Shown here: positions 1-20,861 of the stretch, one piece after another
How the letters are laid out: every line of letters starts with the position of its first letter
How positions within the stretch are numbered: the first letter of the stretch is position 1
Source of the DNA: Candidatus Hydrogenedentota bacterium
Lineage (GTDB): Bacteria > Hydrogenedentota > Hydrogenedentia > Hydrogenedentales > SLHB01
NCBI GenBank assembly: GCA_045863295.1
Contig: BTWA01000055.1
Span: 1 to 25,557, forward strand
Reading direction: 5' to 3'
DNA: 25,557 nt
Made by a program: the position numbers and the translations under genes
Notes under the pieces: model-generated
What the model was told of the DNA's origin: nothing
The model's input: the letters and a program-made list of their open reading frames with translations, nothing else
Database searches by the model: none

Positions 1-329
1 AGGACGCGGTTCAGGCCGCCGTCTACGCCACGCATGGCCATGTTGCAGGCGACTTTTTCGCCATCATTCCCGTATTTCTTTTTCAGGAGGCTATGGGCGT
101 GGCTGAAATCCATCTTCTCGTTGACCGGAAACGAGGCGGGCAATCCCAGGATGGCGTTCTCGACCTGCCGGACGAACCGAGAGACGGTGCTCTGGAACTC
201 GTTGAAGGTGTCCAGCCGCACCTTTGGAATCCTAATCTGATTGAAGGCATTGATGGCACGGCGCTCCGTTTCGTCGACCGTCCGTGCGGGGTCGATCTGT
301 TCCACGATGGTATCCAGCGTTTTCGACAT
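1..329 (-). CDS. Partial CDS running off the left edge; stand-alone copy 3 of the unassigned helical 'domain X'
   Basis: Not in the ORF track. ATG at 329 follows AAAGGAGG and the frame is open to position 1: MSKTLDTIVEQIDPARTVDETERRAINAFNQIRIPKVRLDTFNEFQSTVSRFVRQVENAILGLPASFPVNEKMDFSHAHSLLKKKYGNDGEKVACNMAMRGVDGGLNRV(L). It aligns by eye to 342-923 and to the C-terminus of 954-2636. Confidence 0.85.
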   Translation of the reverse strand, partial: MSKTLDTIVEQIDPARTVDETERRAINAFNQIRIPKVRLDTFNEFQSTVSRFVRQVENAILGLPASFPVNEKMDFSHAHSLLKKKYGNDGEKVACNMAMRGVDGGLNRV

Positions 330-341
330 TTGGAACCTCCT

Positions 342-923
342 TTACAGTTGCCGGAACACCGGCGAAGTCCGGCGCATGTTCTCCACGAGCGCGTCGATGA
401 TGACCCGGTAGTCGTTCGCGTAGCGCGCGGGGTTACTGAGATCCACCGTGTCAGCGAGTACCGGGCCGTAGTAGTGAAAGACGTCGCGGATGATTGCTAC
501 CTTGTCCTCATATACATTACCTTTGATCTGGGCGTCGAAGACCGCCTCGTAGTAGTCGCTTACGTCCTGCGCCTTGATACCCTCTGCGATCAAGTCGATG
601 ACTGTTTTCATACCGCCGTTAGTGCCATAGATCCCGTCATTGACTGCAGCTACGTAGCCGAGACCACGACGCCGGTATTCGCGATCGAGGATCGCTTTTG
701 CGCGAGCGGCGGCGCGGCCACGTTCAATGGATCCGCCACGGGTGACGGCAGACGTGTAGTGGTGAGCATAGTAATCACCGGTGACTGCACGGAAATCATC
801 CCAATTGGGAACACGGTTCTGCCGCAGGTGATAGTGGTTCCGTGCATCGTCATGCCTGCTGGTGACACGGTCGGCGATGGTGGTGTCACTAAGGTCGTGT
901 ATGATGGATTGAATGCTTGGCAT
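342..923 (-). CDS. Hypothetical helical protein, 193 aa; stand-alone copy 2 of 'domain X'
   Basis: RBS AGGAGG before the ATG. Shares DYYAH/NYYLH, GGMKTVI/GGMRYVL and terminal VFRQL/VFRAL with the C-terminal domain of the upstream Lon-like protein. Confidence 0.9.
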   Translation of the reverse strand: MPSIQSIIHDLSDTTIADRVTSRHDDARNHYHLRQNRVPNWDDFRAVTGDYYAHHYTSAVTRGGSIERGRAAARAKAILDREYRRRGLGYVAAVNDGIYGTNGGMKTVIDLIAEGIKAQDVSDYYEAVFDAQIKGNVYEDKVAIIRDVFHYYGPVLADTVDLSNPARYANDYRVIIDALVENMRRTSPVFRQL

Positions 924-953
924 GGGGAGTCCTCCTATGATTATTTCTTCCGA

Positions 954-2636
954 CTAAAGGGCGCGGAAAACGCTCCTGAGTGCTGCCGCGGTTTGCATGT
1001 ATGCCCGGACCAAGAGTTCTGGATTCTTCAGGAACTGGTCCGGTGCCGTTTCAAGTTCCATTTCGGTCAAGTACGGCCGAAACCGGTCGATTAGCGCTGC
1101 CACAAGGGCGACGCGCCGCTCGTAGCTCAATTGTTGAAGTTGCAGTTCGATAGCGTGTTGCACATACATGTGTTCCTGCTCGGCGGCGTATTGACGTCCC
1201 ATCCTCTCTAGGACATAGCGCATACCGCCGTGGGGCGCTCCATTTTTCGCTTCCGCCTGCGCAGCCCGCAGTCCGCCAGCATGCGCGAACGCACGAGCCA
1301 ACAAGGCTGTGGCTTCATCCTCCAAGCCATTGGAACGGACATCCTTGACCTCGTGCGTGTGCCTGAGCAAGTGCAAGTAGTAATTGGCCGGCACCGAGAG
1401 ATAACTTTCATCGGACCCGACAACCGCCCCGTCCAAACGGTAAGTGGCCATTGCGCTTTCTATGGGCTCGATCACGTCGCGTCGAATGACGTCGGGATCG
1501 ATGGTCGCCAAGAGGGCTTTGAGGTCTGGATTTTCATCCGTGCCATCACCATCCGCATCATTTGCGAGGGTCGCGGTCAAGGTGTTGGGGAGGCGGTCGC
1601 CCGCGTTTGCGTTGAGCAAATACCGAACGTCGTCGATATCAGTATCCTTTGCCCTGGTTACAACACCAGTGAGTTCGGATTCAAACAACAATGGGAACCG
1701 AAGCTGAACGCGAATGTAAGGCGGCAGGGCAACCAGTATCCGGTACAGTGTACGGCCAGCCAGAGAAGGATATTTCCGCTTGTACTCGTGGTAACGGGTA
1801 AACTCGGTAAGCAATTCGCGGGCCGCATCCATTTCCTGATCCAGCCATGCCGACTCGAGCACGGCCCAGAACCTTGGGTGCAAGCTCTCGGTGAGTACGA
1901 GGTCAGTCGCGCCTCGAAGCGGTTTGTCGTGTACTTCACTAAAGTAGCCATTGATGAGCGCGGACAAGACCAGATTTCGTTCCAGGAAGGCCAACCGAAG
2001 AACCTCGGCGAGATTCTCAGCAAACACGATTTCTATGTGGCCTTTCGCCTTCCATATGGCATCTTGGATTGCTTGGTACGCATCACGGGCAAGTTTGCCG
2101 AAGGAGAAGTCGCGGTCCGGATCAGCGCAAACGAAAGTGCTGATCTCCGGGTCTGCACATGCCGCATGAATTTTCGCCGGCAGATTGGCTACGAGCGCGC
2201 AGGTTCCGTCAGGAGAGGCAACGTGCAAGGAGAAAAGAACATCGGAGCGGCAGGGAATCCCGAGCGCCGCGGAGATTAGCGCAATGAACGCCGGCACGTC
2301 TGCCGAGAAGCCGTCCACTTCAAGCTGCCGGTTCTGTGCCGCGGAAAGGTGCACATTGGATACAGAAAGTACAAACCTGCTTCTTACAAGTTTCTCGATG
2401 CGGCTTTCGCGGAAGCCTGGCCCAAGCACTTCACTGTAGTGCGCAATCGTACGCCGGCAAATTCTACCGGGACCTGAGGATTGGAAGCGGTCTACAGACC
2501 TATCCTCAGTGGCCTGTGCATGCACCGTCGCAATCGTCGCGACCGCGTCGTTTCCTTCGCCTTTGACAAGCACCGTCTTCGCGCTTCCGATGGCCATCGC
2601 TGACGCTTTCTTCTCGACCGTATCTACGGTGCGCAT
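954..2636 (-). CDS. Lon-like (S16) Ser-Lys protease domain + helical middle region + C-terminal 'domain X'; no AAA+ module
   Basis: DGFSA (S111) matches Lon DGPSA, followed by ALISAALGIP and LPAKIHAA (K155). The Ser-Lys spacing is 44, versus 43 in E. coli Lon (S679/K722). AENLAEVLRLAF resembles the end of a Lon domain. RBS GGAGGT. Confidence 0.8.
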   Translation of the reverse strand: MRTVDTVEKKASAMAIGSAKTVLVKGEGNDAVATIATVHAQATEDRSVDRFQSSGPGRICRRTIAHYSEVLGPGFRESRIEKLVRSRFVLSVSNVHLSAAQNRQLEVDGFSADVPAFIALISAALGIPCRSDVLFSLHVASPDGTCALVANLPAKIHAACADPEISTFVCADPDRDFSFGKLARDAYQAIQDAIWKAKGHIEIVFAENLAEVLRLAFLERNLVLSALINGYFSEVHDKPLRGATDLVLTESLHPRFWAVLESAWLDQEMDAARELLTEFTRYHEYKRKYPSLAGRTLYRILVALPPYIRVQLRFPLLFESELTGVVTRAKDTDIDDVRYLLNANAGDRLPNTLTATLANDADGDGTDENPDLKALLATIDPDVIRRDVIEPIESAMATYRLDGAVVGSDESYLSVPANYYLHLLRHTHEVKDVRSNGLEDEATALLARAFAHAGGLRAAQAEAKNGAPHGGMRYVLERMGRQYAAEQEHMYVQHAIELQLQQLSYERRVALVAALIDRFRPYLTEMELETAPDQFLKNPELLVRAYMQTAAALRSVFRAL

Positions 2637-3268
2637 AACGACACCTCCATCGTGGCGTTGTCCCGTCCCGGGAAAACGCGGACTTCTATCTCTCCATCTA
2701 GGAGGCGCTCATCTACCGAAGCTCGCCGCGGAAGACTTCCCGTATCGGCCGCGAACCGGACGGGTTCGTCTGGGAAAGCGAAGCCCGACAGAACGTGTTC
2801 CCGCCGGAGCTCGGCCTCCCAGATGATCTGACCAGTGGACAATCCGAGCTGGTAGTGGCCAGGAGTGATAGCGGGAATGGAAACGCTCGGCTCGCTTCCG
2901 GAGAGTCTCACGACGCGGCGGGGCTGATTGCTAGCTGTCAGCACCAGCGATACGGAAACGTGAATTAGCGCATCCTCGAATACTTGAGCATCAAAGAGGT
3001 TCTCGTACTCATCCAAGGCGCCGATTTCTTCGAGTTCAACCGGAGCGTCGTGGTCTATTGGATGCTCTGCACCGGAAACCTCCGGTCGCTTCAGATACTC
3101 GCTTCGCACGGCTTGCATGAATACCAGGAACTGGGCGTAGCCGTTCCGGTGCCTCTCCTCGCGTCCTAGCATGCGAATCTCTTCGAGGGCCAACCGAATG
3201 GCTTCCCCTCGGCCTTCCGCCCGGTAAGCCGCAAAAAGCAGCGGAATGAAATACAGGTCAGGGTTCAT
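2624..3268 (-). CDS. Hypothetical protein, 214 aa; helical N-terminus, beta-rich C-terminus
   Basis: Start moved from 3385 to ATG 3268 (MNPDLYF), which follows GGAGGT. Short overlaps with both neighbours indicate operon coupling. Confidence 0.8.
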   Translation of the reverse strand: MNPDLYFIPLLFAAYRAEGRGEAIRLALEEIRMLGREERHRNGYAQFLVFMQAVRSEYLKRPEVSGAEHPIDHDAPVELEEIGALDEYENLFDAQVFEDALIHVSVSLVLTASNQPRRVVRLSGSEPSVSIPAITPGHYQLGLSTGQIIWEAELRREHVLSGFAFPDEPVRFAADTGSLPRRASVDERLLDGEIEVRVFPGRDNATMEVSLCAP

Positions 3269-4457
3269 GGTCCACCTCCGAATCCGGGTTTGACTCATGG
3301 CCGAGTGCTTCGACAGCGGCGCGATACACGCCAGCACGCTCGGCCATCTCGCGTAAGATGGGATCGCGGCTAATCTCCCGAGCAACGTTCCGCCAAAGGT
3401 CTGGCATCGCGGAGTTCCACTTGCTGCCTGCGAACCGGCTGTACGCGGCCTTGGACACCCCTGCCTCGCGGGCGAGGGTGGCGTCGTTCTTCTGCCCTGT
3501 TGTCAGGCTCTGCATGCGGGCAATCACCAGGGTTCTCACGCCGTCTGCGCCGCATTTGCGAATCGAGGGTTTGAGCGCATCGAGACAAGCGGACTTCTCC
3601 TCAGCGAAGTAGCGCGCCAGATTGGGATACTCCGACCGGGCCGCTAGTTCCCGGGGATTCGGCATAGTGCTTGACGCACACCCCAACTCGAATGCCGGAT
3701 CGGATACATAACACGCTACGGCGAGCCTCTCGTTGATTATGGATTGGACGCGCTCGCGCTCGCCTTTACGTCCAGGACAGGGGTCATCCACGTTTTCGCG
3801 CAGCCATGCCGGGCGTTGCGGGCCGCTGAGATACTTCGGCAGGTAGACGGTGATCGTGCCCTTTCCGGGAATCTTCCACGCGTAGCGTGATTCGAAGGGA
3901 TTGCGAAACTTCCGCGTTGCTTCCTGGAGAGAAAGTCCAATGTGCCGCAACACGAACCGCTGGAACACGGCACACACGGCGCTTTCGCGTTCGAGCGAAT
4001 TCTGCGCGCGATTGACTTCCTGGTCCGCCAAAACAGCGTTGGCCAGCGCTTTGTAGTACTTCCGCCGGTCAGTCTTCGGCCAGTGGATGGCTTCTTGCTC
4101 TCCCTGCAGGTCATCCGTACCGACGGACGGCCTTTCACGGTGCTTCTCCGGTAAGGCCTCAGGCGGGAGGTTCGTGAACTTATCCAGTGTCAGATCGCGC
4201 GCGGCGTCCAAGATTTCAGTTCGGGGGCGTGGTGATGAGGTTGCGCACCGCTCGATACAGTACGTGATCAAATGATGAATCCCGATGCGGTTCTCATTCC
4301 CATTCAAAACGAACGGCGTGCGATGTTCCAGAAGCTCCTTGATGGCGCGAGCATGGACATCCGTACACAACACACCTATGAGCGCCTCAATGGTGTGCCG
4401 GGCAAACGGCCGCTCTACGGCTGGTTCAGTATTCTTTGGCTTGGCAATCGTACTCAT
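3258..4457 (-). CDS. Hypothetical protein with C-terminal helix-turn-helix (putative DNA-binding or sigma-like regulator)
   Basis: NDATLAREAGVSKAAYSRF fits an HTH pattern (LA-x-x-A-G-V-S). ATGA overlap with the upstream gene. Confidence 0.7.
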   Translation of the reverse strand: MSTIAKPKNTEPAVERPFARHTIEALIGVLCTDVHARAIKELLEHRTPFVLNGNENRIGIHHLITYCIERCATSSPRPRTEILDAARDLTLDKFTNLPPEALPEKHRERPSVGTDDLQGEQEAIHWPKTDRRKYYKALANAVLADQEVNRAQNSLERESAVCAVFQRFVLRHIGLSLQEATRKFRNPFESRYAWKIPGKGTITVYLPKYLSGPQRPAWLRENVDDPCPGRKGERERVQSIINERLAVACYVSDPAFELGCASSTMPNPRELAARSEYPNLARYFAEEKSACLDALKPSIRKCGADGVRTLVIARMQSLTTGQKNDATLAREAGVSKAAYSRFAGSKWNSAMPDLWRNVAREISRDPILREMAERAGVYRAAVEALGHESNPDSEVDHEP

Positions 4458-6352
4458 GATGTCGCAACGCTCCTCACTTCATGGCGCTCATCGCGCGCCC
4501 CTACAGCAGCCGATACCTTCCAACGTCTGTTAATCTCGATGTTGGCTAACGCCCGCAGCGTTTCCATCGCATATTTCGAGGTGGTGTCCACCCAGATACG
4601 GGCAGGCCCGCTTTGGACAAGCTCGTCAAGGCAACGCAGGCACCGATCATTCGACACATTAGGCCCAGCTTTGCTGCAATCTGGAGTCGGCCAGAGAAGG
4701 GGAAGTGCCTCGACGAGGGTACTTTCGGCCATATACTCGAAGCGCAGTGCGAAGCGTATGCGTTGGAGACTGGGCTCCAATGACGAAAGAAGGATCATTG
4801 ATTCAGGGGCGGACAACTCGTCATCGTGGAAGATGGACGTGCGTACAATGGACACCCGCGAAATCAGACCGTGGGTTTCTTCGAAGCGTTCGGCAAACTG
4901 CTCTGGCAATATCCGGCAATCATGGTAGGGAAAGGGCTCACTACGTCCTATGACCACTGCGTGGGATAACGGAACACCCAGAGCGTTGGCCGCGCGGACA
5001 ATGTCGCGAGTCCTCGGGTTTTCGGCAGGCCGGAAGAGAACGTGCACTTCACGGTCCTTCTCTCGAAGTACACGGAGCAACATGGAGTGGCGCAAGGCAT
5101 CCTTGCGTGCACCGAGGATCGCTTCGACCCGTTGAAAAACGTACTGCGCAAGATCGGCGAATCCGAAGTAAAGCAGCCGTTCAATCATTCGCGACAGGCA
5201 CGGAACGGATCCAGGCGCATCCGGCAACGTGGGAACCAGCCGGGCGTAGTGCCGGAGTTCGCCCACCAGGTCTCCTTCGAGCCGCGACCGTTCCGCTTCC
5301 GCCGCCATAACGACGTCTTCACGCCCTGCCGCCTGCAGTTCCTCAAAAAGCGGCGTCAAATCTCCGGTTCTTCCCTCGCTGACGCTGAGCCCAACTTCTT
5401 CGATTATTCGGTCGATGCGCTTCCTTTCCGCTTTCAGACGCAGCTCGTTGCACATCACCTCGTCGATGCCCAGACAGGAACGGTAGTCACCTTCGAGCGG
5501 TTCACCGCTCGGACGAAGGATGCAATTCCTCAATTGAAACCGCTGAGCAAAGCCCTCACGAAACACGAGAACCAGCTCATCGGATGCGCTGCGCGCGGCG
5601 CCGACCACCCCCTTGGGGATTTCCATCTCATTCCGCACCGTGATTGGAGAAGCGCACCATTCCAAGGCCTTTCCATCGTCATGCCCAAAGCTAAGCAGGC
5701 GCGTACCGAAGGGAACCAGCGCGTAGAAATCACCAAGGTGGGCCGATACCTGCGACATGGTCTTGCCGGGGAGATTGAGGATGCTCATGCCACCGTCCTT
5801 AGCGGGAAAGACGACACTCTTGGCCTCTTCCCAATATGCCCCCTTGACCCACCCCAAAGGCGACGGCGGCGACGCTGCAAGGTAGGTCGTGAACTGCCGG
5901 GTCGATGTTTGCATCACATAGACCACGCCCTGGTCCGTGATACCGATGAGGCACCCTTCGAGGTAATGGAGACCAGTGACTGCGCCACCGGGATGGGGAA
6001 TCGAGATTACATCAGGTTGGGAACATTGCGCTTGCATGATCAGGAGGTTATTTTCCTCATCCGACGCTGCCAGCTGATCATCCTCCAGGAAGCAGACCGA
6101 TATAATGCCTGCACGATGTTGAACCCATCCGGCAGTTTCGAGCGTATTGGCATTGGCCGTGTACGCATGGATCCTTCCGCTTCTGGTCGCGACCGCTACC
6201 CGGCTATGGTCGAGGCTCAGGGCCATGGCATAGATGCTTGCACCAGGTTCGTCCGAGAAAACGAGTTCTCCCGTTGCCAGACTCAAGACATGTGGATGCG
6301 CCTTGCCGGTACCCAGCAAGGGAAGTAGATCTACCGTGGCTGCACGGCCCAT
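4454..6352 (-). CDS. WD40-like beta-propeller protein with helical (TPR-like) and unknown C-terminal regions
   Basis: Repeated blade-like segments: IYAMALSLDHSRVAVATRSGRIHAY, HRAGIISVCFLEDDQLAASDEENNLLI, HPGGAVTGLHY, AHLGDFYALVPFGTRLLSFGHDDGKALEW. RBS AGGAG. Confidence 0.75.
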   Translation of the reverse strand: MGRAATVDLLPLLGTGKAHPHVLSLATGELVFSDEPGASIYAMALSLDHSRVAVATRSGRIHAYTANANTLETAGWVQHRAGIISVCFLEDDQLAASDEENNLLIMQAQCSQPDVISIPHPGGAVTGLHYLEGCLIGITDQGVVYVMQTSTRQFTTYLAASPPSPLGWVKGAYWEEAKSVVFPAKDGGMSILNLPGKTMSQVSAHLGDFYALVPFGTRLLSFGHDDGKALEWCASPITVRNEMEIPKGVVGAARSASDELVLVFREGFAQRFQLRNCILRPSGEPLEGDYRSCLGIDEVMCNELRLKAERKRIDRIIEEVGLSVSEGRTGDLTPLFEELQAAGREDVVMAAEAERSRLEGDLVGELRHYARLVPTLPDAPGSVPCLSRMIERLLYFGFADLAQYVFQRVEAILGARKDALRHSMLLRVLREKDREVHVLFRPAENPRTRDIVRAANALGVPLSHAVVIGRSEPFPYHDCRILPEQFAERFEETHGLISRVSIVRTSIFHDDELSAPESMILLSSLEPSLQRIRFALRFEYMAESTLVEALPLLWPTPDCSKAGPNVSNDRCLRCLDELVQSGPARIWVDTTSKYAMETLRALANIEINRRWKVSAAVGARDERHEVRSVATS

Positions 6353-6354
6353 GC

Positions 6355-6978
6355 CTATGTCTCCTGGTTCCGGTAAGCGTCGTTATGCAGCGTCGTCGGA
6401 GGAAGCGAACGTAGGCCACCGAGGACTTTCCGAAAATCCCCGCGATCAGGCCCGGAACTCTGAATCTGCTGCGGTTCCGTGCTGGAGCGCAGCATTGGCG
6501 CGGGATATTCGTCGATCTTGCCGTGAGGCCACCGCTTCACTTCTGCGCGCTGAAGTGCTCCATGGATACGTGAGATGAGAGTTTCAACAGCTTTCGCCTG
6601 CTTCTCCAAAAGTTCGATGAAGGCGGCGAGAGCAGCGTCGGCTTCGGAAAAGTTGGCGCGCAGCCGGTCGAGGACAATGCGACGTGTGCCAAGACCAATC
6701 GCCTGCGCTTTTTGGCGTGCGTCCGCAAGCTTACGCTGGACGACAATGCGAGTCTGCTGATACTTGGTGAGCATGATACAAATCTGCTGCTTCTCCTTCG
6801 CGTGCTGCGCAAAGAGTTGTTTCAGCTCGAATGGAGGCGGATCCGGGATCGCGTCAGCATGGGGCAAAGCACTCGTGTGGTCCTCGAAGCGTTCCAGGTT
6901 ACTGTCGTCACTTTTTATCCGGCTCAACAGGTGCTCACGCATGTTAGTCTTGTCGTATTCTTCGCTAGTCGTGGACAT
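6355..6978 (-). CDS. Hypothetical coiled-coil/helical protein, 207 aa
   Basis: Long amphipathic helical stretch in the middle. RBS GGAGG; 2-5 nt spacing to neighbours. Confidence 0.8.
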   Translation of the reverse strand: MSTTSEEYDKTNMREHLLSRIKSDDSNLERFEDHTSALPHADAIPDPPPFELKQLFAQHAKEKQQICIMLTKYQQTRIVVQRKLADARQKAQAIGLGTRRIVLDRLRANFSEADAALAAFIELLEKQAKAVETLISRIHGALQRAEVKRWPHGKIDEYPAPMLRSSTEPQQIQSSGPDRGDFRKVLGGLRSLPPTTLHNDAYRNQET

Positions 6979-6983
6979 CGATG

Positions 6984-7487
6984 TTAGCCCTCCATCAGGC
7001 GGCGAAGCCGCTCCACAGTTTCTTCACTCGATTGTTGGACGGCCCGAAGGTCGTCCGCTAGGTGCTGAAGTTCTTCCACGTCGCGCTGTATCGAACCGCC
7101 GGCGTCCCGTATCTTCTCAGCGATGTCGGCCACCTTTACCTTCTCGGCTTGTGTGTCGACAGCATCATGCGTGCGCTCGGCAGCATCCGATGCCTCGGTC
7201 ACTTCACGTTCGCTTTCGGTGACCTCTTCTTGAACGTCGCGAACGTTCCCTTCCCGCACGTCGAATTCGTCGTGTGCCGTGCGCTCCGCGGCGTCAAAGG
7301 CGTCCTGAATCTCACGATACGCCTCCAGACTTCCACCGTAGTCAAGCTGATCCTCGATCTCCCGGATGACCTCCCGGTCATCCGTCACCTCACTCAAAAG
7401 GTCGTGCAAGTCGTGAAGATTGGCTTCCTGGCGGTCCGTGTCGTCACGGATGGCCGCTTTCTCGATGTGTCGCAGTTCATTCATCAT
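6984..7487 (-). CDS. Acidic coiled-coil protein, 167 aa
   Basis: Very D/E-rich, lacks Pro, heptad-like pattern. RBS GAGGA. Confidence 0.85.
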   Translation of the reverse strand: MMNELRHIEKAAIRDDTDRQEANLHDLHDLLSEVTDDREVIREIEDQLDYGGSLEAYREIQDAFDAAERTAHDEFDVREGNVRDVQEEVTESEREVTEASDAAERTHDAVDTQAEKVKVADIAEKIRDAGGSIQRDVEELQHLADDLRAVQQSSEETVERLRRLMEG

Positions 7488-7513
7488 GAGTGGTTCCTCC
7501 AGGGTTCGTTTGC

Positions 7514-10264
7514 CTATCCATTCTTCGGGTTCACCAGGCTCTTTACGGTGTCGCCGAATCTGGCCTCAAATTCAGAGACGATCTGGGATTTCGTTCGCTT
7601 GACGTCCGCAGGGACGTCGACTCCGATATGGGAAATGATGGGTTCATACAACTCGAAGTAGAACTGCGCGACCGCGTCTCCCTGCATACGCGCAAGCACT
7701 TCCGCAGTTTGGTCCATATTGACCCCTGCCCCAGAATTCCTTCCTGATTCGTGTTCGATCCTCCTGGTGTGTTCTTTTGCGGCGTCGTCTTTCGCCTTGA
7801 GTACTGCGAATTCCCGTTGAAGCCAATTCAGGTTAGTCCTGCACCAAGTAGCGTGGTGCCTGCGAAACCACGGGCGTTCGGAGATTGCGGCTTTTATTTC
7901 GTCATAGGTGGGAGGACTCGAAAGGCCAGGTATCGCTTTGGTAAGGTCCACCGTATGTAACAGAATCGGTCTGTGGTAAGTCTCTGCGAATAGATATCCT
8001 TGGCCTGTGGCGAGACGCGCTACATGTTCTCTCTGCGTGTCGCTGAAGAGCATGGTACCCCCAAGAAGCTCGCGGCTGTTTAGATCTTGTATGCGGTAAG
8101 TGAGCTTTGTTGATGTCAGTTCGATTAGGTCCGGAGCAACGTTCTTACAGCTTTGGTCGGCAGGGAGAAATCCCACTTTCTGCTTTCGGAATTCCTTGAC
8201 GAACTTGCATGCCTGCTTGCTTGCGGCAGCTACCTGGTCCACGGTATCGGATGATCGATTAGCGGGATCGGACGACGGCGCAAGGGCGTGAGCCTCGTCA
8301 ACGAGTATTACGAGTTGTACGTCACCCGCGGGTACCGGTTGGTGTGTGATGTACAGTTGCAGGCGACTAAGGAAGAAGACCATAAAAATGGACTTTTCCG
8401 CGTCCGATAGCCCGCTCAAGTCGATGATGCTATAGCCTTCTATGATCTCGCCAAACTCAGGGCAGTTGCGTGCCGGCTGAAAGATCTTACCCAATGAACC
8501 TATGCTGAGGGTCCCGAGGCGGTTGTCGAGCGCCGCATAAAGATCGCCTTTTATGTCAGCGCGATAGCTCTGCTCATTGAGAACTTGCTTTGCAGCCCTA
8601 TACAGGTCGCCCATCGTGGGTGAAGGTTCCGGGTTTGGATACCACTGGCAAACTCGATAAAGGGCCTTCCTTAGAACCGTGACGAGCGGACCTTCCAGTG
8701 GCATGCATGCTTCGAAGCAGGCCATTATCTCTGCGACAAAGGCATCCCTATCCTGCCGAGGAAAACGCTTTAACGCACTTAACGCCATCGGTACTACTTG
8801 CGGACGGCCAGGCGTAAAGATTTTGAGTTCCTTAGCCAATCTACGCGCCGTCGGGTCCGGGGAACATCGTTCTTCCAGAATCAGACCATTCTGTTCGCCT
8901 AGAATCGGCGAAATAAAAATGAAGGGTATACCCAGCCGGTAAAGCTGAAGAGCGATATTGATCAGTGTAATGGTTTTCCCTGTACCTTGGGGTCCGAAGA
9001 TGGACATACCTCGAAGAAGGCTCTGAGCTTGGATGCGCCGCTCCAGGATGTCGATATCGCCGCGCCCATGTGCAAGATCGTGGCCGAGCAGTATGGTTCT
9101 GTCCCCTTCGGCATTCGGCGGATCCGTGCTCTGCCGGAGGCAACGCGGGGTACCGGAAGCTCCGACTGGAAGACGGAAGAGGCCGCGCAGACTCGAAGGA
9201 AGTGCGAGGTGGCGCAGCCAAGAAAGCCTTCCATAAAGATGAGAATCCATATCGAACTTGGATTTCAGCGGGTCAGGCGCGACCGCTACATCACCCAATT
9301 CTGCCGAGGTCAGCAGGTCTGTAAGTTCAGGAGATTGCCGATTGACGACTACTAGCTCCCAGTTGCTGTCTGCAAATGCGCTTTCCGCTACTACGGTCCC
9401 AATCAGCTGGGCAACCCCCGGCTCGCATCCGAACACCCGGCAATGGAAATGTAGTTGATGTTGGTTCAACTCCTCCCCCCGTGCGGTCATTGCAAACAGA
9501 ACTTCGCGGGCGAGGGGATCGGGCTGTTGGGTTGATTGTGTCGGGGAACGATACGGACGGCTACGTTCTTCGTCGAAATAGTCGATGCTGAACCCATCTC
9601 GAGACCGTTCGCTGTTTGGGCGGGCGATCCGCTGGAGATGTGTGCAGTACTCTGCAATTGCGGCCCGTTCGTCACTCGCATTGTATGAACTTACACATGT
9701 GTGAATAAGAACGGGAGAATTGATGGAGTCCAAAGCTTGATCGAGGTTTAAATACGTATTGGAGTCGTTCGAAGTCAGGGTAAGATCCTTCCGTAGAAAC
9801 GATGGAAGAAAGGAATTCTCGGCTGGTGTCGTTACCGGCTTGATCACCTGCGCCTTTCCTACAATGTCGCAGCTCTCGATGAAATCGCTCCATGGAACTG
9901 TTGGCATGCTGGACACTCTCCACCTATTCGGCTTGTCCGCGTGGTGAGAGGCGCCGTAGAGATGCGAAAGGCGGCCACGGTTAAGCGTCACGTCCAAAGC
10001 ATCAGCGCATCCGCGTTCGTAGGTGTTGAGCGACAGAAACATCTTGAGGCGAGACTGCGGATGCGCGGTTTCATCTCCGGGTGAGTGGAACAGATAGGAA
10101 CTAAGGCTACAGCTGCGAGACGGAGCAACTGAAATGAGTTGGAGAAGTCGCGCACATTCTTGCCAAACTGCGGCAGCGATTCCCTCTGGAAGGTGGATTA
10201 AGAGATTTGAATCATCCAGTGCCGGAATCACGCGAGCTTGAAAAAAATGACGTTGCGGAGCCAT
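7514..10264 (-). CDS. Large HerA/FtsK/VirB4-superfamily (DUF87-like) P-loop ATPase
   Basis: Walker A IFGPQGTGKT, Walker B VILVDEAH, KEFRKQKVGFLPADQS (arginine-finger plus Q motif of HerA/FtsK), then TSTKLTYRI and LATGQG. Start placed at ATG 10264 after GAGGAGG; an alternative in-frame ATG at 10396 would add a hydrophobic leader. Confidence 0.85.
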   Translation of the reverse strand: MAPQRHFFQARVIPALDDSNLLIHLPEGIAAAVWQECARLLQLISVAPSRSCSLSSYLFHSPGDETAHPQSRLKMFLSLNTYERGCADALDVTLNRGRLSHLYGASHHADKPNRWRVSSMPTVPWSDFIESCDIVGKAQVIKPVTTPAENSFLPSFLRKDLTLTSNDSNTYLNLDQALDSINSPVLIHTCVSSYNASDERAAIAEYCTHLQRIARPNSERSRDGFSIDYFDEERSRPYRSPTQSTQQPDPLAREVLFAMTARGEELNQHQLHFHCRVFGCEPGVAQLIGTVVAESAFADSNWELVVVNRQSPELTDLLTSAELGDVAVAPDPLKSKFDMDSHLYGRLSWLRHLALPSSLRGLFRLPVGASGTPRCLRQSTDPPNAEGDRTILLGHDLAHGRGDIDILERRIQAQSLLRGMSIFGPQGTGKTITLINIALQLYRLGIPFIFISPILGEQNGLILEERCSPDPTARRLAKELKIFTPGRPQVVPMALSALKRFPRQDRDAFVAEIMACFEACMPLEGPLVTVLRKALYRVCQWYPNPEPSPTMGDLYRAAKQVLNEQSYRADIKGDLYAALDNRLGTLSIGSLGKIFQPARNCPEFGEIIEGYSIIDLSGLSDAEKSIFMVFFLSRLQLYITHQPVPAGDVQLVILVDEAHALAPSSDPANRSSDTVDQVAAASKQACKFVKEFRKQKVGFLPADQSCKNVAPDLIELTSTKLTYRIQDLNSRELLGGTMLFSDTQREHVARLATGQGYLFAETYHRPILLHTVDLTKAIPGLSSPPTYDEIKAAISERPWFRRHHATWCRTNLNWLQREFAVLKAKDDAAKEHTRRIEHESGRNSGAGVNMDQTAEVLARMQGDAVAQFYFELYEPIISHIGVDVPADVKRTKSQIVSEFEARFGDTVKSLVNPKNG

Positions 10265-10392
10265 TCTTGCCTCCTCTTGGACGCTAGGGGGAGCGTTGTT
10301 GGGTTCTCGAGAAGCGCCGAGCGCGTTTCCGTATGTAGCGGGTGCAGTGACCAGGACGATGACGGAAAGAACGCTTATGTTTCGAAAGAGAT

Positions 10393-11139
10393 TCATTGGA
10401 TTGCTCCCGGCGCCCAGTGCAGGACCTCTATCGCTAGATGAAGCAGGTGCTGAAACGCCCATTTCCCGGTGAACGTAACGGCGGGAAGTTCAACGAGAAG
10501 GAAGTATCCGATAAACGGCGCAATGTACGGCCATGGGTCGAGGCGTGATACGGTTTGCGGCGGGAAGTTAAGGCGCCCGTGTGTGGCCTCCCATTCCGCG
10601 ATAGGCAGCGCGTAGCCCACACTGCGAGGAGGAGAACTGACGGGGACTGGCAAAACGTCTATGATTCGTCCCTGGTCATCATCAAGTACTCCGGGGCGGT
10701 ACTTGGGGATCGTGTGCTTGCGCGGCGTAAAATAATTGGCAAATAGATCGCGATGCGGACGCCAGTCTGAGAAACTGCCACAGCAATCGCCTGGCGACAG
10801 CGGCGTCTCGCGATTTTGAAGGGCATAAGAACTCCATTTGCCTCTTTCGTCCACGCTAGTATCGGACTTGCAGTGAAATTGCTTGACTGTGATATCGACT
10901 GACACTCCCAGCGCAGATGCAACAATGCTTGCATTCCGAATGACGTCACGCAGCGAGTCGCTTGTGCGAATCTCGTCGGCTTGTATCCGGATAACCGGTC
11001 GATCGTGCATAGGACTTGACGAGCTGCCGGTCTTGGCGATGAGGGAATCTCGGGTAGGCACTACCCCCGTAGCTATCTGCCCGGCAAGCGACGTCTTGAG
11101 GTCGCGTAGCACGTCGTCGGCGTGTTCATAGCGGTTCAT
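10393..11139 (-). CDS. Hypothetical protein with C-terminal hydrophobic segment; probably the frameshifted C-terminal part of the kinase
   Basis: ATG 11139 overlaps the kinase stop (ATGA). It begins MNRYEHADDVLRDL, which resembles kinase subdomain XI, and ends with hydrophobic WPYIAPFIGYFLLVELPAVTF. Confidence 0.65.
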   Translation of the reverse strand: MNRYEHADDVLRDLKTSLAGQIATGVVPTRDSLIAKTGSSSSPMHDRPVIRIQADEIRTSDSLRDVIRNASIVASALGVSVDITVKQFHCKSDTSVDERGKWSSYALQNRETPLSPGDCCGSFSDWRPHRDLFANYFTPRKHTIPKYRPGVLDDDQGRIIDVLPVPVSSPPRSVGYALPIAEWEATHGRLNFPPQTVSRLDPWPYIAPFIGYFLLVELPAVTFTGKWAFQHLLHLAIEVLHWAPGAIQ

Positions 11140-12035
11140 ATGGATTTCTCCAGGCAGTTTGCGATGACGCGGACAATTTGTTCGGGTACGGGTTCCCGGA
11201 GGCGAGGCGCTACACAATGCAAATGCTGGTGTTGCAGTTCCTCGTATGTACCCATGAACGGGGGCGTGCATTGTTCACTGTGAATTTCGTACCCAACGCA
11301 GCCAATGGCGTAAAGATCTACTCGGTGATCCACACGATCCGGAGTTTGAGCGAGAAACGCTTCGGGCGCCATGTATTGCGGGGTCCCAGGAGAGGATGCC
11401 CATGCACGATCCAACGCATCGGTATGGGGCCAGTCCCGGCAAATGGCTAGCCCGAAATCTGCAATACGGATTGTGCCGTCTTCTGCGAGGAGCAGATTTT
11501 CCGGCTTGATATCCCGATGAATCACATCTCGTGCTTCGAGATGCTTTACGGCGGCAAGGATTTGCCTTAGAAAGGTCTTCCCATAACTAATTCGACGTTT
11601 CTGGTCAAAGCGATTCGCAAAGAGCCATTCCCGCAGTGTAGTTGGCGCATATTCTGTGACCAGGACGGAGAGCAGCCCGGACGCGGTCTCGACGTTAAGC
11701 AGGTCGTACACGAAGAGAATGTTGGAATGCCCTTGCACCGTTCGGTACGCGCGGAGCTCGTGCATCAGCAGCTCCCTTGCCAATTGAGCAGGGAAGTGCT
11801 CCGACTGCGCAACTTTGAGCGCGACGTAATTGCCTGTCCAAGTATCCATCGCCTTGAATACGATGCTGATGCTCCCCTTGCCGATCTGCTCCAGGACGCG
11901 GTAGCGCCCGTTCGCAATCGGGTCACCGATCTGCAACGCCTGTGTCGCTTCGTGGCGCAAGTTGGAGTAGAAGAAGCGGTCTTTGCCACCTTGGTTCCTA
12001 TCCGCGTAGGATTCTGCTGCACCAAGGTTTCGCAT
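11136..12035 (-). CDS. Hanks-type Ser/Thr protein kinase (truncated at subdomain XI)
   Basis: IGKGSISIV, VALK, HE (alphaC Glu), HRDIKPEN, DFG, GTPQYMAPE, DLYAIG, PPF. Start moved to ATG 12035, which overlaps the upstream stop (TAATG). Confidence 0.93.
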   Translation of the reverse strand: MRNLGAAESYADRNQGGKDRFFYSNLRHEATQALQIGDPIANGRYRVLEQIGKGSISIVFKAMDTWTGNYVALKVAQSEHFPAQLARELLMHELRAYRTVQGHSNILFVYDLLNVETASGLLSVLVTEYAPTTLREWLFANRFDQKRRISYGKTFLRQILAAVKHLEARDVIHRDIKPENLLLAEDGTIRIADFGLAICRDWPHTDALDRAWASSPGTPQYMAPEAFLAQTPDRVDHRVDLYAIGCVGYEIHSEQCTPPFMGTYEELQHQHLHCVAPRLREPVPEQIVRVIANCLEKSI

Positions 12036-12751
12036 TACTTTTCTTGCTCCAGTTGCGCATCGAACCACAGCGTCGCCCGTTCCATCGCGAGAGTAAGTTG
12101 TGAATGCAGGATTTGGAATTTTGATTCCAAAGGATTTTTGGTGACCGCATACCGGTCGCATAAAGGCAAGACGTAATCCCGCGTTTCGTCGAAGTACTCG
12201 CGAGCCTTTTTCTGAGTGAAGGCACCAGGCATCGTGCGAAGGTTGTCGAGACGATCGAGACACTTTCCGAAAGAAGCTTTGAAGGAAGTGGCAATCCGGT
12301 GAAAGTAGTCGTCTGTACTCTCGGTCTCATCCTTGGTCAGAAGCTCGATTAGGCCCAGGGCTTCCGCGGATATGCTAAACGGGCCTTCGAGATATCCGGG
12401 CGAAGCGCGTTCTTGCGATTGCTCGATGACGTCGTGAAGCAGAACTGCCTGAATTATGGTGCAGTCGTTGACCCCCAACACGAGTGCGCTCTGCGCTACA
12501 CGAATTGGATGCATGACAAAAGGTTCGCCCGTTCGCCGGCGTTGCCCGGCATGAAGCGACATTGCCGCAAGCCTGGCACGAGAGTAATCACCTAAATCGA
12601 ATAGATGCGGGCGAATCAAACTTGGCAGGCGCTCGCTATTCCCCAGTTTCTGACAATGGGAATTTGTCTGACGAGCCAGGGCCGTATCGATTCCGTAAGC
12701 GGCACGATTCGCCTCTTCGGAGATCGCAATTACAGCACGATTAGTACCCAT
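12035..12751 (-). CDS. Stand-alone RelA/SpoT-type HD domain (small alarmone hydrolase/Mesh1-like)
   Basis: HAGQRRRTGEPFVMHP, LLHDVIEQ and KCLDRLDNLR correspond to the RSH hydrolase motifs. No synthetase domain. Confidence 0.85.
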   Translation of the reverse strand: MGTNRAVIAISEEANRAAYGIDTALARQTNSHCQKLGNSERLPSLIRPHLFDLGDYSRARLAAMSLHAGQRRRTGEPFVMHPIRVAQSALVLGVNDCTIIQAVLLHDVIEQSQERASPGYLEGPFSISAEALGLIELLTKDETESTDDYFHRIATSFKASFGKCLDRLDNLRTMPGAFTQKKAREYFDETRDYVLPLCDRYAVTKNPLESKFQILHSQLTLAMERATLWFDAQLEQEK

Positions 12752-13023: not shown

Positions 13024-16000
13024 GTGAATTCAATCATGCAAAAAATAGCGTTCGTCCTGGACCTTGGGTCCCAACCAAAGGAATTGGTTAAGAACGTGTC
13101 GCTGGCGTTCGCGGACGGTCAGTGGACTCCGCCTTTCGAGTGCACGAAGGGTAAGAATCGGGAGTATTGGCGGCGCTTTTTTCTGCTGGTTTACCGATAC
13201 ATTAGCCTTGGTATTGACATCGATGGGAGTGGAGAGCGCTTGCTGCCCCTTCCTCTCATTCACAAAGATCAACATGACTATGACGAATGGCGACTATTAG
13301 CTAAGTACTGGCTCGACAAGAAGTACGGCGTTCGTAAACATCTCAAAAAGACTCCGGAGTTGCGCAATCTTCAGCTTGCGGTTTCCGAGATCTTCCTTGC
13401 GTCCGGAGCGCCGAACGCTCCCCGTGTTCTCTTTGCTTCGGATTGTAAGTTAGAGGTAGTTCTTTGTCCCTCCTCAAAGATTGAGCTCTGGCCAGGCCAC
13501 ATCTCGGGCGCATCGCCGCTCGGCAGCAATTTCTTTGAGCGGAATGGTATTGATTTCTCTGCCGGCCTCACCCGCCCTTTGACCACCGCAGCAGACCAAC
13601 TATTGCGATTCGAACGGGCACAAATGACAAGTGTGAAACACAAGACGCAGAGTCTTAACCCATACATGTCCGCACTTCTCTCTCAAGGTATGTCACGGCG
13701 AATCCCCTTATATCTTCGAAAAGTTGAAGTGACAAGAAGCTCCACAACCGAAGATGCCGTACACTCTCACGAACCGCTAGAAGCTATAAATGCCGTGGTC
13801 ACCGCTATTGAGAGGGGACAATGCTTCCTTATATACGGTCCATCCGGCTCTGGCAAGTCCTGCTTTCTAAAATCGATCTCGCGAAAATTATTTGAAATGC
13901 CAGGTACAAAACAAAAGTACGCGGTCGTGGTGGAGCTAGGCGCGTATGCTCCGTCATTACACAAGACTTTCGAAGACCTTGTATTTGATTCCTTGCAGCG
14001 GGAGATTGAACGCACTGGAGATAGATTGACGTCCGCTGAGGCTAAAGAATTGAAGAACTGGCTCAACTCGAGCGATTCGCGCACCAATGACACGGTTTAC
14101 ATGCTCGATGGATATAGCGACGTCCCGTTTGAGAGTCGATACGGCCCCGGAAGGTTCGAAGACATCGCAGCTCGCTTCCTCCGGACGGTGACCGGATCTG
14201 TTATTGTCACGTCGAGGGGACTTCAATATCCGCAATGCCTAACCCCTTTAACGTACAGACTTGCCGAACCAGAACCGAATGCCCTCATCAAGTACGTTCG
14301 AGGAAAGCTTGAAAACAACTTGGTCGCGAGACGCGTTCGGCAACTGTTCAAGGATCCGCAATTCTTCCATCTAGCTACGAACATGTTTTACCTCGATTTT
14401 ATCATCGAGCTCGCACAGCACGAGCCCGAATGGCAAGAATTTGCACATTCCCGCTCCAGTATTATTGGCAAGATTGTTAGGTTCGCTCTGGAAGAATTGG
14501 TATTTGGTAATCCAGCACAGCTCTCACCCGTTTCGCCATCACTACCTGACGTTGAGTGGCTGCTGTCAAAGCTGGCCTACACCTCTCTACAGGAGCCGGA
14601 TGGCCAACTGTTCTATCCTGAAAGCCTATCGGACATGTTCCCGGACGTAGAAACCAGGACATCCGCACTTCAAATAGCCATGAAGGCAGGTTTTATAGAG
14701 CATTTTGACCTGGACCTGCCCTCCCTATCAGAGCGCCGTATACGATTTACGAATGAACTATATCGCGACTTTTTCGCTGCCCGTCATGTGATTCGGCAAA
14801 TTCAGCAAAAGCCCTCCACAATCAGCAATCAGATCGTGCGATTGATTGAGTTTCACCGATGTGACGAGCCCCTCTATCTTCTCGCCGAAATGCTCGGGCA
14901 AGATAGGCACGCATTCGGTATTGCGCGAGCGATAGCAACGTACGATTGTGTCGCAGCGGCAGCGTTCGCTGCAAGGGGCAATCTCATAGATCCGGACTTG
15001 CTCTGTAGCATAGTTGCAGGTACAGCGCGTCTGCACGAAACCTGGGCAAATCAAGCACGTACACCTCCGTTCTTCGATCTGACTACTCGTCATCTCAATC
15101 AAAATATCGTTACATTACTTTCGCGGTATGACACGGAAACGCTATTTGAGTCTTATGTCCTCTCAGCTGATCATGACTGGCTGCGTTGTCACGTTCTCGC
15201 CGCTCTCGGCAGGCAAGGAGCGCGAGTAAGCGACGTTCTTCGAGAGCGAAGCTTCACGCAGGAGCCACGTGATGTCTTTCCTTTGCTTCTTGGACTCTCC
15301 GATGCCGGAGCCATTGATGAAGTGCGGCTTGCGGCCCGATTGTTTCGTGAATGCTTCGAGTCTCGAAGGCGCTACCTAGCGCACGAGGAAAGAATTGGGA
15401 AAAGTTACCGCTTGCCAGAATATTATGACGAAGAATATTACGCGGCATTCGCACATCATAGCCGAAACGTATTTGCCAGGTGGCATTCACCTATGCCACC
15501 GGAGACCGTTTTTGAACTTCTGAAATCGGAACAGGATCTACGGACAAGGGCTTTGCTCTTCGGCTTACTTGAGCGATCAAAGTTCGAAGAGCAGCATATA
15601 GAAGAGCTCTTGAAACTGGCGTATACAGAGCTAGGCATACATTGCGCAAAACCACTTCGAGCGATCGCGCGCATTGGCGGCGATAAGTGCTGGAATGCGC
15701 TTACCAAGTTCGCCGCCGACTGGTTTCAACGAAATGGGCTGGCGCAAATACTAGGCGAAGTGGACCCCAATCTGCGAACCATCATTGACGCTATGGTTGC
15801 TGCGCATTCGCGGACAAAAGCATGGGATACATTGCGACAACTACTATTCATGGAATCCGAGATGGAAAGTTTCACCTGCGACGATGACGTGAGGTTTCGC
15901 AGTGAATGGAATCGCATGTTAGTTCTCCTAATGTCAAGGAACATTTCTGTATATCGCATGGAGGAATTATTTTGTTTCGACTCAGACTTAGATGAAGAAA

Positions 16001-16710
16001 AACTGCGATTGGTTGCGACTACAGCACCGATGTGGGAGTTGCGGATACAGGCCACAAGAACACTGGTACGTTGCAGTATTTGGCACGACCCTTTGTTCGT
16101 ACTGGATGCGCTCGAATTGTGCTATGACGCGAAGTCCAAGGAGTCTCATAATCTTCTTATCGAACCCCCTACATGGCAGCTTGACGATCACGTTCCAATT
16201 GGCTATTGGGCAGCCCGCGATATTCATATTCTTTGCCGACGCATAGAGTGCTCGGGAGATCGAGCTCAAATTCATCGGCTTGCAAGTCTTTGTTTTCGTG
16301 AGAAGCTGCCAATGGAAGCAATTATCGAGTGCATACCATTCCTTAGATCTAACGGGATTGAAATTGGAGCTAAACTCACGGAAAGTCTTATAGAGAATGC
16401 AATGTGGTTTGAAACAGGAGGGTACATATTCTCGGAACCCTTCCTGAGCGCCATCAGATCGGTCGCGACCGAACATTTCGACGAGATCTTCATGAAGTCG
16501 CTAACTCGTCAATGTAATGATACGCCCGATGCCCGCAGGGTACCTCAGAATGCCGTTTTGCAAGAACTCCTGGTGTTCCGAGGCTGTCGATTCATCGACA
16601 AGCTCAAGGGCGCTCCGTCCGGGCTCGCCGTAGTACCACTTAACGAGACGGACGCTATTCTTACAAAACTTCGTTCGCTCCTAGCGCATGCTCAATTCTC
16701 TCCTCGGTAG
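13024..16710 (+). CDS. NACHT/STAND NTPase (NLR-like) with unknown N-terminal domain and helical-repeat C-terminus
   Basis: Walker A IYGPSGSGKS, Walker B YMLDGYSD, VIVTSR, NMFYL and FTNELYRDFFAA (NACHT winged-helix motif), followed by a long alpha-helical region. GTG start 6 nt after AGGAGG; ATG 13036 is an alternative. Confidence 0.85.
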   Translation: MNSIMQKIAFVLDLGSQPKELVKNVSLAFADGQWTPPFECTKGKNREYWRRFFLLVYRYISLGIDIDGSGERLLPLPLIHKDQHDYDEWRLLAKYWLDKKYGVRKHLKKTPELRNLQLAVSEIFLASGAPNAPRVLFASDCKLEVVLCPSSKIELWPGHISGASPLGSNFFERNGIDFSAGLTRPLTTAADQLLRFERAQMTSVKHKTQSLNPYMSALLSQGMSRRIPLYLRKVEVTRSSTTEDAVHSHEPLEAINAVVTAIERGQCFLIYGPSGSGKSCFLKSISRKLFEMPGTKQKYAVVVELGAYAPSLHKTFEDLVFDSLQREIERTGDRLTSAEAKELKNWLNSSDSRTNDTVYMLDGYSDVPFESRYGPGRFEDIAARFLRTVTGSVIVTSRGLQYPQCLTPLTYRLAEPEPNALIKYVRGKLENNLVARRVRQLFKDPQFFHLATNMFYLDFIIELAQHEPEWQEFAHSRSSIIGKIVRFALEELVFGNPAQLSPVSPSLPDVEWLLSKLAYTSLQEPDGQLFYPESLSDMFPDVETRTSALQIAMKAGFIEHFDLDLPSLSERRIRFTNELYRDFFAARHVIRQIQQKPSTISNQIVRLIEFHRCDEPLYLLAEMLGQDRHAFGIARAIATYDCVAAAAFAARGNLIDPDLLCSIVAGTARLHETWANQARTPPFFDLTTRHLNQNIVTLLSRYDTETLFESYVLSADHDWLRCHVLAALGRQGARVSDVLRERSFTQEPRDVFPLLLGLSDAGAIDEVRLAARLFRECFESRRRYLAHEERIGKSYRLPEYYDEEYYAAFAHHSRNVFARWHSPMPPETVFELLKSEQDLRTRALLFGLLERSKFEEQHIEELLKLAYTELGIHCAKPLRAIARIGGDKCWNALTKFAADWFQRNGLAQILGEVDPNLRTIIDAMVAAHSRTKAWDTLRQLLFMESEMESFTCDDDVRFRSEWNRMLVLLMSRNISVYRMEELFCFDSDLDEEKLRLVATTAPMWELRIQATRTLVRCSIWHDPLFVLDALELCYDAKSKESHNLLIEPPTWQLDDHVPIGYWAARDIHILCRRIECSGDRAQIHRLASLCFREKLPMEAIIECIPFLRSNGIEIGAKLTESLIENAMWFETGGYIFSEPFLSAIRSVATEHFDEIFMKSLTRQCNDTPDARRVPQNAVLQELLVFRGCRFIDKLKGAPSGLAVVPLNETDAILTKLRSLLAHAQFSPR

Positions 16711-19715: not shown

Positions 19716-19756
19716 GATTCTTCTCCTTTTCTTGAACTGAGCTGAGGTGGACAAGA

Positions 19757-20825: not shown

Positions 20826-20861
20826 GCTTCGTCACCTCCTCTTCTTGGTCTTGATACAGTT

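Follow-up and report, generated by a model that had tools for sequence, protein, structure and literature searches.

Why would a Lon-type protease carry at its C-terminus a helical domain that is also encoded, in free-standing form, by the small genes lying next to it? The question is raised by one end of a stretch of DNA from a Candidatus Hydrogenedentota bacterium (hereafter the window), which spans contig C55 from its first base to base 25,557, in an assembly of 88 contigs, and where three genes (P0001, P0002 and P0003; Table 1) follow one another in tandem on the minus strand. The original prediction held that a single unassigned helical domain of about 190 residues occurs three times at this locus, fused to a Lon protease (P0001) and as two free genes, the second of which (P0003, from an ATG at position 329) was missing from the list of open reading frames (ORFs). 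This gene is indeed present, open at the contig start, and it escaped the list because the window begins where contig C55 begins. The sharing of the domain was borne out by BLASTP and hhalign, whereas the count has to be raised, as there are four copies per gene cassette. Below, the domain is called X, and LonX (P0001), X2 (P0002), X3 (P0003) and X4 are its four paralogues.

Residues 370-560 of P0001 align end to end with residues 2-193 of P0002 (BLASTP E-value of 2e-7, 22% identity), and the profiles of the two families, built from five (alignment A2, LonX) and eight sequences (alignment A1, X2), respectively, align over 188 columns in hhalign (probability 99.7, E-value 4.3e-25). Taken alone, the fragment P0003 has no BLASTP match to the other copies, and its hhalign alignments to them are in the correct register and not significant (E-values of 0.002 and 0.005, probabilities of 14% and 7%). 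It can be aligned with 10 orthologues, and the resulting X3 family (alignment A3) matches both X2 (E-value 5.9e-15) and LonX (E-value 4.4e-15) end to end, each with a probability of 98.4. Moreover, P0003 matches positions 2-108 of a joint X profile built without it (E-value 1.4e-19), and pieces at the ends of contigs C17 and C23 match the complementary part of this profile (positions 94-192). The motifs quoted in the original prediction, along with the VFRAL and VFRQL ends of the first two proteins, are found in the translations, and the three motif blocks share columns in hhalign. These sequence comparisons confirm that a helical domain of ~190 residues is common to the Lon-type protease and to the neighbouring small genes. 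As for the assignment to an already characterised family, which had been named among the outcomes that would refute the prediction, none came out of Pfam, NCBIfam, PADLOC or PHROGs, in which P0001, P0002 and P0003 have no match at E-values ≤ 0.01 or 0.001.

The X3 gene can be completed beyond the window: its first 55 bases recur at the end of C23 and, in reverse complement, at the start of C17, and the X3 frame reaches 192 residues across this overlap, via either contig alike, so that the window may continue into C23 or into C17. The genomic context was examined at 21 related loci, all taken from public genomes, in which a gene of 189-198 residues directly follows the P0002 orthologue and is itself followed by a gene for an ATPase of ~820 residues, whose 3' end and stop codon are overlapped by a fourth X gene (X4, 200-230 residues). 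In hhalign, the X4 family (alignment A4) aligns end to end with X2 (E-value 1.4e-23), LonX (9.5e-22) and X3 (5.2e-16). In the genome of the window, X4 is encoded on C23, with a paralogue on C17, just beyond a HerA/FtsK-type ATPase, and a search with the joint profile brings the X copies of this genome to eight, in two paralogous loci, with no further copy.

Among the 15 loci whose sequence extends 4 kb or more downstream, the four X genes are found in one order in 13, the exceptions being L008, which is rearranged and has three X genes, and L014, which ends inside the ATPase gene; the remaining loci end earlier. The whole cassette reads g08, g09, LonX, X2, X3, ATPase, X4 and AEP primase, with gaps of 6-30 nt between LonX, X2 and X3. 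Homologues of g08 and g09 precede the protease gene in 20 of the 21 loci, while the ATPase is found in 14 and the primase in 11 of them, and the hosts include Thermodesulfobacteriota, Planctomycetota, Nitrospirota, Gammaproteobacteria, Ignavibacteriae, Verrucomicrobia and others. Because this linkage is kept across phyla, it is very likely that X and the protease are functionally coupled. Signs of decay were seen in two loci, X2 being split into two ORFs in one (L009:2820-3398) and X3 lying in two pieces ~1.9 kb apart in the other (L014:12407-14915). The genome of the window holds a second copy of the region at the start of contig C52 (66% identity for LonX, 89% for X2, 86% for g08 and 82% for g09), with a second ATPase (83%), X4 (89%) and primase (94%) on C17.

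In a quick maximum-likelihood tree of 57 X sequences, each paralogue is separated from the other sequences by one branch, with Shimodaira–Hasegawa-like approximate likelihood ratio supports of 100 for X2, 93 for LonX, 100 for X3 and 99 for X4. In the seven loci having all four genes, paralogues of the same locus are 15-25% identical to each other, and the mean pairwise identity across loci amounts to 53% for X2, 37% for X3, 34% for LonX and 26% for X4. Judging from the tree and these identities, the four paralogues are four ancient clades, one per gene position. X2 is the most conserved of them, with the motifs REYRRR, ND..GTNGGM and ERYA, an end in FRxL and, over eight sequences, 31 invariant columns, most of which are polar. 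X4 has lost most of the X2 motif, and the only feature present in nearly all four families (96% of the 57 sequences) is G104 in X2 numbering, the glycine at which the longest helix begins.

The AlphaFold2 model of X2 was computed from an alignment of 57 sequences covering the four families and is made of eight helices (mean predicted local distance difference test, pLDDT, of 94.7; predicted template modelling score of 0.85). Foldseek brings up no meaningful neighbour for it, either in the PDB (best E-value of 1.8) or among predicted viral structures (BFVD, best E-value of 1.4), and VIA-align over 48,161 chains yields a best Z of 5.4, under the usual noise for helical proteins. At the sequence level, the X profile finds nothing meaningful in the PDB, the ESM Atlas comparison of X2 (0.76) falls below the bar, and Pfam searches of the 57 sequences at E-values ≤ 1 return scattered single matches, with neither an effector-associated domain (EAD) nor any other family recurring. 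As far as sequence searches and the predicted structure go, X is a new all-alpha domain of ~190 residues, unnamed in the four family libraries. In the model of P0001, the helices of the X domain succeed one another as they do in X2, and X2 resembles no known fold clearly. Finally, X proteins are neutral to acidic (median isoelectric points of 5.6-6.7), on which grounds a role of X as a basic DNA-coating protein was rejected.

How widely the domain is distributed, and on which partners, was determined with an X profile searched against 1.84 billion cluster representatives at 50% identity, among which 2,169 bear X at E-values ≤ 0.001, 1,802 at ≤ 1e-10 and 823 at ≤ 1e-30. The best 150 of the 2,169 consist of 68 full Lon fusions, 54 free forms and 28 forms of intermediate length, 25 of which match the Lon-fusion profile from their first residues and are therefore truncated gene calls of Lon fusions. 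Other N-termini occur in three of these 150: a short basic extension in P0092, 165 residues of no recognised family in P0146 and a metallopeptidase-like part in P0087. P0087 is a metagenomic protein of 477 residues, in which an N-terminal part resembling DUF2201_N metallopeptidases precedes the C-terminal part of a Lon-X protein. Its first ~245 residues are 86-89% identical to proteins of 428 residues, while the remainder is a close match to the Lon fusion P0171; each half is 86-90% identical to separate proteins, with a join inside the Lon middle domain. As a singleton on one 5-kb contig joined within that domain, P0087 was rejected as a second protease-X architecture, and is probably either an assembly chimera or a one-off deletion. 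Its metallopeptidase part is 45% identical to the product of the window gene at 21306-22832, and P0087 hints at elements elsewhere that carry both metallopeptidase and Lon-X genes.

The other half of the fusion deserves equal attention. In its AlphaFold2 model (pLDDT 83.7), P0001 is composed of an alpha/beta domain (residues 12-216), a helical domain (219-345), a disordered linker (351-366) and the X domain (370-560). When searched against the PDB, the P0001 family profile finds the LonB-type proteolytic domain 1xhk (E-value 2.6e-7), as does a 60-sequence profile (2.2e-10), the 45 sequences matched by the latter at E-values ≤ 1 being all Lon or RadA. In the profile alignment, GfSAD falls onto the GDSAT of 1xhk and LpaK onto its NEK, the serine and lysine of which we take to be the catalytic residues of 1xhk; the corresponding S111 and K155 are kept in at least 90% of the 60 sequences. 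Foldseek agrees, with 135 PDB matches at E-values ≤ 0.001, of which those listed are Lon proteolytic domains, the best one being 6wys_B (E-value 2.2e-7, template modelling score by target of 0.72). The motifs RFW, YP..G and LPP..R..FPL of the middle domain are also conserved in the 60 sequences. With respect to the proteolytic domain of Lon and LonB (MEROPS S16; 1xhk, 6wys, 1rr9), P0001 thus has the same fold and the conserved Ser-Lys dyad. In contrast, no AAA+ module was found in it with Pfam or NCBIfam, the peptidase fold beginning at residue 12, and the LON substrate-binding domain is missing too; the order is different (peptidase first, then helical domain, then X), and the Pfam family Lon_C matches only one of five P0001 family members (E-value 0.0025). 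The label "Lon protease" of the original prediction therefore holds for the fold and the dyad and not for the AAA+ module: on the strength of profiles and model, P0001 is a Lon-type S16 peptidase-domain protein rather than a canonical Lon, and its peptidase is active-looking and devoid of an ATPase of its own. Between the two copies in this genome, P0001 is the most diverged core gene (66% identity), and positions 1641-2119, encoding residues ~173-332 (end of the peptidase and middle domain), give no alignment at the DNA level, both flanks being 83-87% identical.

Regarding the partners encoded in the cassette, g09 lies directly upstream of the protease gene and has no family or PDB match (Pfam, NCBIfam, PADLOC, PHROGs, PDB). 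Its ORF is listed from 3385, but the alignment, whose consensus starts at a MxxxLYFIP stretch, points instead to a start at 3268, where the ATG overlaps the g08 stop codon. The latter has no PDB match either; its Atlas feature matches to sigma-70 and helix-turn-helix (HTH) clusters reach 0.90-0.91 with few shared features, and its matches to KORA, HTH_28, Sigma70_r4_2, HTH_3 and LacI are sub-threshold and each found in one of 15 orthologues, so that a C-terminal HTH or sigma-region-4-like motif in g08 is possible and should be taken as a lead only. The ATPase of ~820 residues is of the HerA/FtsK/TrwB type and matches phrog_5156 (E-value 1.4e-24), its sole PDB sequence match being IcmO (E-value 0.013). 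None of the core proteins, ATPase included, has a hydrophobic segment, which, like this sole match, weakens the idea of the 821-residue ATPase as a membrane coupling protein or as a conjugation pump of the FtsK/TraB type. Finally, the primase matches PF22548, the AEP of TOTE conflict systems (E-value 9.4e-32), as well as models of CRISPR-associated PrimPol.

The flanks of the cassette were scanned in 11 loci with long flanks (115 flanking ORFs), eight of which have a tyrosine integrase gene (PF00589) after the AEP primase, with a ribonucleotide reductase gene in between in L013. A tRNA gene abuts the integrase in three of these eight, L005 (Asp), L011 (Thr) and L022 (Gly), and the integrases are mutually only 20-30% identical. 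Furthermore, X2 is found in five of 60 relatives of the window's genome, with up to four loci per genome, hence a patchy and multi-copy distribution. In these respects (integrase, tRNA gene, patchiness and copy number), the cassette resembles tRNA-targeting integrative elements endowed with an AEP primase and a tyrosine integrase. It differs from them in that its eight-gene core has no match in PLSDB plasmids or INPHARED phages (tblastn of P0001, including 50,697 phage records), and that neither copy in this genome has an adjacent integrase. Two pattern scans of IMG/VR (with A1 and A8) returned no relative.

Sharing a helical domain between an enzyme and free adaptors had been likened to the logic of Death-like domains and EADs, and part of the comparison stands. 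As in the EAD systems described by Kaur et al. (2020, PMC7159879), a non-enzymatic helical domain is found both on an enzyme and in its neighbours of the same operon, and coupling through domain-domain contact would be the natural reading of this likeness. The original prediction went further, suggesting that the copies might co-polymerise so as to activate or inhibit the protease, or might be its substrates or decoys. Yet X is larger, with ~190 residues and eight helices, and in EAD systems the partner copy is fused to a core NTPase-type component, the nearest relative of a copy being the one in the adjacent gene (PMC7159879). Here, the three other copies are free-standing proteins of 190-230 residues with no fused domain, and adjacent copies belong to four clades, with 15-25% identity within a locus against 26-53% across loci. 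Four ancient clades therefore do not fit a homotypic coupling of the Death/EAD style. No Death-like chain is among the listed fold matches of the X2 model, a distant relation being still possible. A literature search that included parts of PMC12458937, PMC4158269 and PMC7159879 retrieved no description of the cassette or of X, and the words "Lon" and "primase" do not occur as whole words in the main text of PMC7159879.

What, then, do four unlike copies of a domain do around a peptidase? Our preferred reading, to which we give a probability of roughly 0.4, is that the four X proteins are non-interchangeable subunits of one hetero-oligomeric assembly, to which the protease is tethered by its X domain, and that the cassette is the constant part of elements. 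LonX, X2, X3 and X4 would thus form one cytoplasmic hetero-oligomer, in which the protease's own X domain would position the peptidase beside the ATPase and would probably gate it, the whole serving the cassette as the constant part of tRNA-targeting integrative elements. We favour one assembly because the paralogues are old, fixed in position, unequally constrained and tightly spaced, and because one of them is tethered to an ATPase-less peptidase; from there, we infer the physical association of the X proteins, the tethering or gating and the role in element biology. Were the function of the four paralogues to be worked out, thousands of hypothetical proteins would become annotated and the outcome would be the definition of either a new conflict system or a new type of machinery for mobile elements; the X set might also reveal a new mode of regulating or powering a Lon-type protease.

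Several observations weigh against such an assembly or its role in elements. Contact between any two X proteins rests on inference, the context is drawn from 21 loci only, and other X architectures may exist beyond the best 150 of 2,169. The invariant polar residues of X2, which include R74, K76, R81, R84, R85, N95 and D96, then T101, N102, D110, K117, D130 and others, are also compatible with a site for ligand binding or catalysis. The window's own genome gives no sign of a role in mobility: no integrase lies beside either cassette copy (none of its nine PF00589 matches is on C55, C52, C23 or C17), and searches of the window and of the adjoining contigs turned up no tRNA gene. Finally, both HerA-like ATPases match the defence model mad8 and the primase is closest to the conflict-system family PF22548, meaning that the cassette may be a defence system rather than the machinery of an element.

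Signalling Lon-type proteases offer another angle on LonX. Those of the CalpL type, which belong to type III CRISPR systems, have a SAVED domain and no ATPase, and the SAVED domain activates CalpL through ligand-driven oligomerisation; CalpL-CalpT-CalpS is also an example of a protease/anti-sigma/sigma switch, just as ImmA-ImmR, in mobile elements, is of a protease/repressor switch. By analogy, LonX combines an N-terminal ATPase-less Lon-type peptidase with a C-terminal non-catalytic domain that may control it by oligomerisation, and a possible HTH/sigma-like protein, although weakly supported, is encoded alongside (g08). However, neither a SAVED domain nor CRISPR genes were found here with Pfam and PADLOC, and X has three free paralogues, for which CalpL systems are not known to have a counterpart. 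It is conceivable, if unlikely, that g09 or the free X proteins serve as substrates or pseudo-substrates recruited through X-X contacts, and that their cleavage frees g08 as a regulator, by which the element or a response would be turned on. The triad g08-g09-LonX is the most constant part of the cassette (20 of 21 loci), g08 gives weak HTH/sigma-like signals and the peptidase lacks an ATPase, like signalling Lon-type proteases; yet the HTH signal is sub-threshold (each family in one of 15 members) and the Atlas value of 0.90 comes with few shared features, no cleavage site is known, and a substrate role leaves unexplained why three free paralogues have long kept fixed positions. It seems to us improbable that X is instead a sensor or enzyme domain, with X2 as its active form and a ligand-driven oligomerisation of LonX that activates the peptidase. 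The 31 invariant and mostly polar columns of X2, the ND..GTNGG motif at the N-terminus of a helix and the much slower evolution of X2 relative to the other paralogues argue for it, whereas the X2 model bears no likeness to a known ligand-binding or catalytic fold (Foldseek E-value 1.8, VIA-align Z 5.4), only the glycine motif is common to nearly all families, and X4 is without most of the X2 motif. More doubtful again is a fixed hetero-oligomeric collar of the four X proteins that couples the peptidase to the soluble HerA/FtsK-type motor, taken as a hexamer, as the life-cycle engine of a new and widespread family of tRNA-integrating elements in uncultured bacteria: the HerA/FtsK pump would replace the AAA+ ring of Lon, yielding a split ATP-dependent machine for proteolysis or for DNA-protein processing, of a type not known to have been described.

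Two further explanations bear on the cassette as a whole. That it is a conflict system directed against phages or elements and carried by islands as cargo, in which X is the coupling adaptor between a HerA-type sensor or motor and the protease effector, is rather unlikely in our opinion, even if the clues are numerous: the match of the primase to PF22548 (E-value 9.4e-32) and to CRISPR-associated PrimPol models, those of both HerA-like ATPases to mad8 and of the kinase of the adjoining module to mad6, and the genes for ThiF, E2-ThiF-JAB, MoxR and DUF2201_N peptidase nearby. In addition, this adjoining module is hypervariable, with 25-34% identity between the two copies in this genome against 66-96% for the genes on both sides, which points to a swapped or fast-diversifying module. 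On the other hand, PADLOC recognises no named immune system, with X, g08 and g09 having no match; the cassette is the constant part by the integrase, whereas cargo usually varies; and several copies per genome better suit a mobile element. The likeness to TOTE systems, which are named after TPR, OB, TBP and Effector in PMC12458937, is limited to the primase, since the defining TPR-OB and TBP (ibid.), as well as CSD and TPR-cold-shock/OB families, are absent from our scans of the window and adjoining contig. Far less credible is a virus-like assembly, in which a protease-scaffold fusion would co-assemble with free scaffolds and the HerA/FtsK-type ATPase would be a packaging motor. A protease with a C-terminal copy of its all-alpha neighbours, followed by ATPase, primase and integrase, does call to mind such a plan, as does the phrog_5156 match of the ATPase (1.4e-24): in the UL26/UL26.5 pair of herpesviruses and in C/Nu3 of the tailed phage lambda, the protease carries a C-terminal copy of the free helical scaffold protein. 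However, the shared part is identical in those systems, where the genes are nested in frame, while the X copies are separate old paralogues with 15-25% identity. Besides, no capsid, portal or terminase gene was found in the core with Pfam or PHROGs, no fold of viral origin matches the X model, and the IMG/VR scans and the tblastn search of 50,697 phage records came back empty.

Table 1. Features located in the window, in nucleotide positions (residue numbers refer to P0001).
Feature	Position	Strand	Remarks
P0003 (X3)	3-329	minus	109 residues, open at window start
P0002 (X2)	342-923	minus	193 residues, free-standing, ORF translation
P0001 (LonX)	954-2636	minus	560 residues, ORF translation
X domain of P0001	954-1529	minus	residues 370-560 and stop codon; BLASTP, hhalign
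Helical middle domain of P0001	1602-1982	minus	residues 219-345; secondary structure, pLDDT
Lon-type S16 proteolytic domain of P0001	1989-2603	minus	residues 12-216; profile, Foldseek
Lys155 codon	2172-2174	minus	predicted catalytic dyad
Ser111 codon	2304-2306	minus	predicted catalytic dyad
g09	2624-3268	minus	conserved partner, ~215-250 residues
g08	3258-4457	minus	conserved partner, 399 residues
WD40-like protein	4454-6352	minus	632 residues, upstream module
HerA-like ATPase	7514-10462	minus	982 residues, matches mad8
Ser/Thr kinase	11136-12263	minus	best PADLOC match mad6
HD-domain protein	12035-12751	minus	upstream module
P-loop protein	13024-16710	plus	1,228 residues
MoxR-type AAA protein	18228-19820		
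SUFU-like protein	19975-20598		
DUF2201_N-like putative metallopeptidase	21306-22832		508 residues
GP88-family protein	22691-23293		

The module upstream of the core (4454-12751, minus strand) also holds a protein of 292 residues and two small proteins, and a HerA-like ATPase/WD40-like/Ser-Thr kinase module precedes the core in about half of the loci. Farther along the window, the P-loop protein has no counterpart in the second genome copy or in the related loci, and the genes of 16840-23293 are duplicated on C52 at 81-96% identity. Elsewhere, none of the MoxR, SUFU, DUF2201_N and GP88 genes was seen within 10 kb of the cassette, save for a distant MoxR-like gene in L017.

In the related loci, other genes were encountered beside the cassette. 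Ribonucleotide reductase genes come after the primase in three of them (L007:16998-19894, L013:17457-19736 and L017:20162-22276); that of L007 is of class III and accompanied by its activase, those of L013 and L017 encode large subunits, and the sequences of L007 and L017 end there. Genes of ubiquitin-type conjugation are also found, in the form of an E2-ThiF-JAB triple fusion at L025:19030-21324, and ThiF-family genes adjoin the HerA-like ATPase in four loci (L005:3-638, L011:1-783, L017:2-733 and L022:546-1805).

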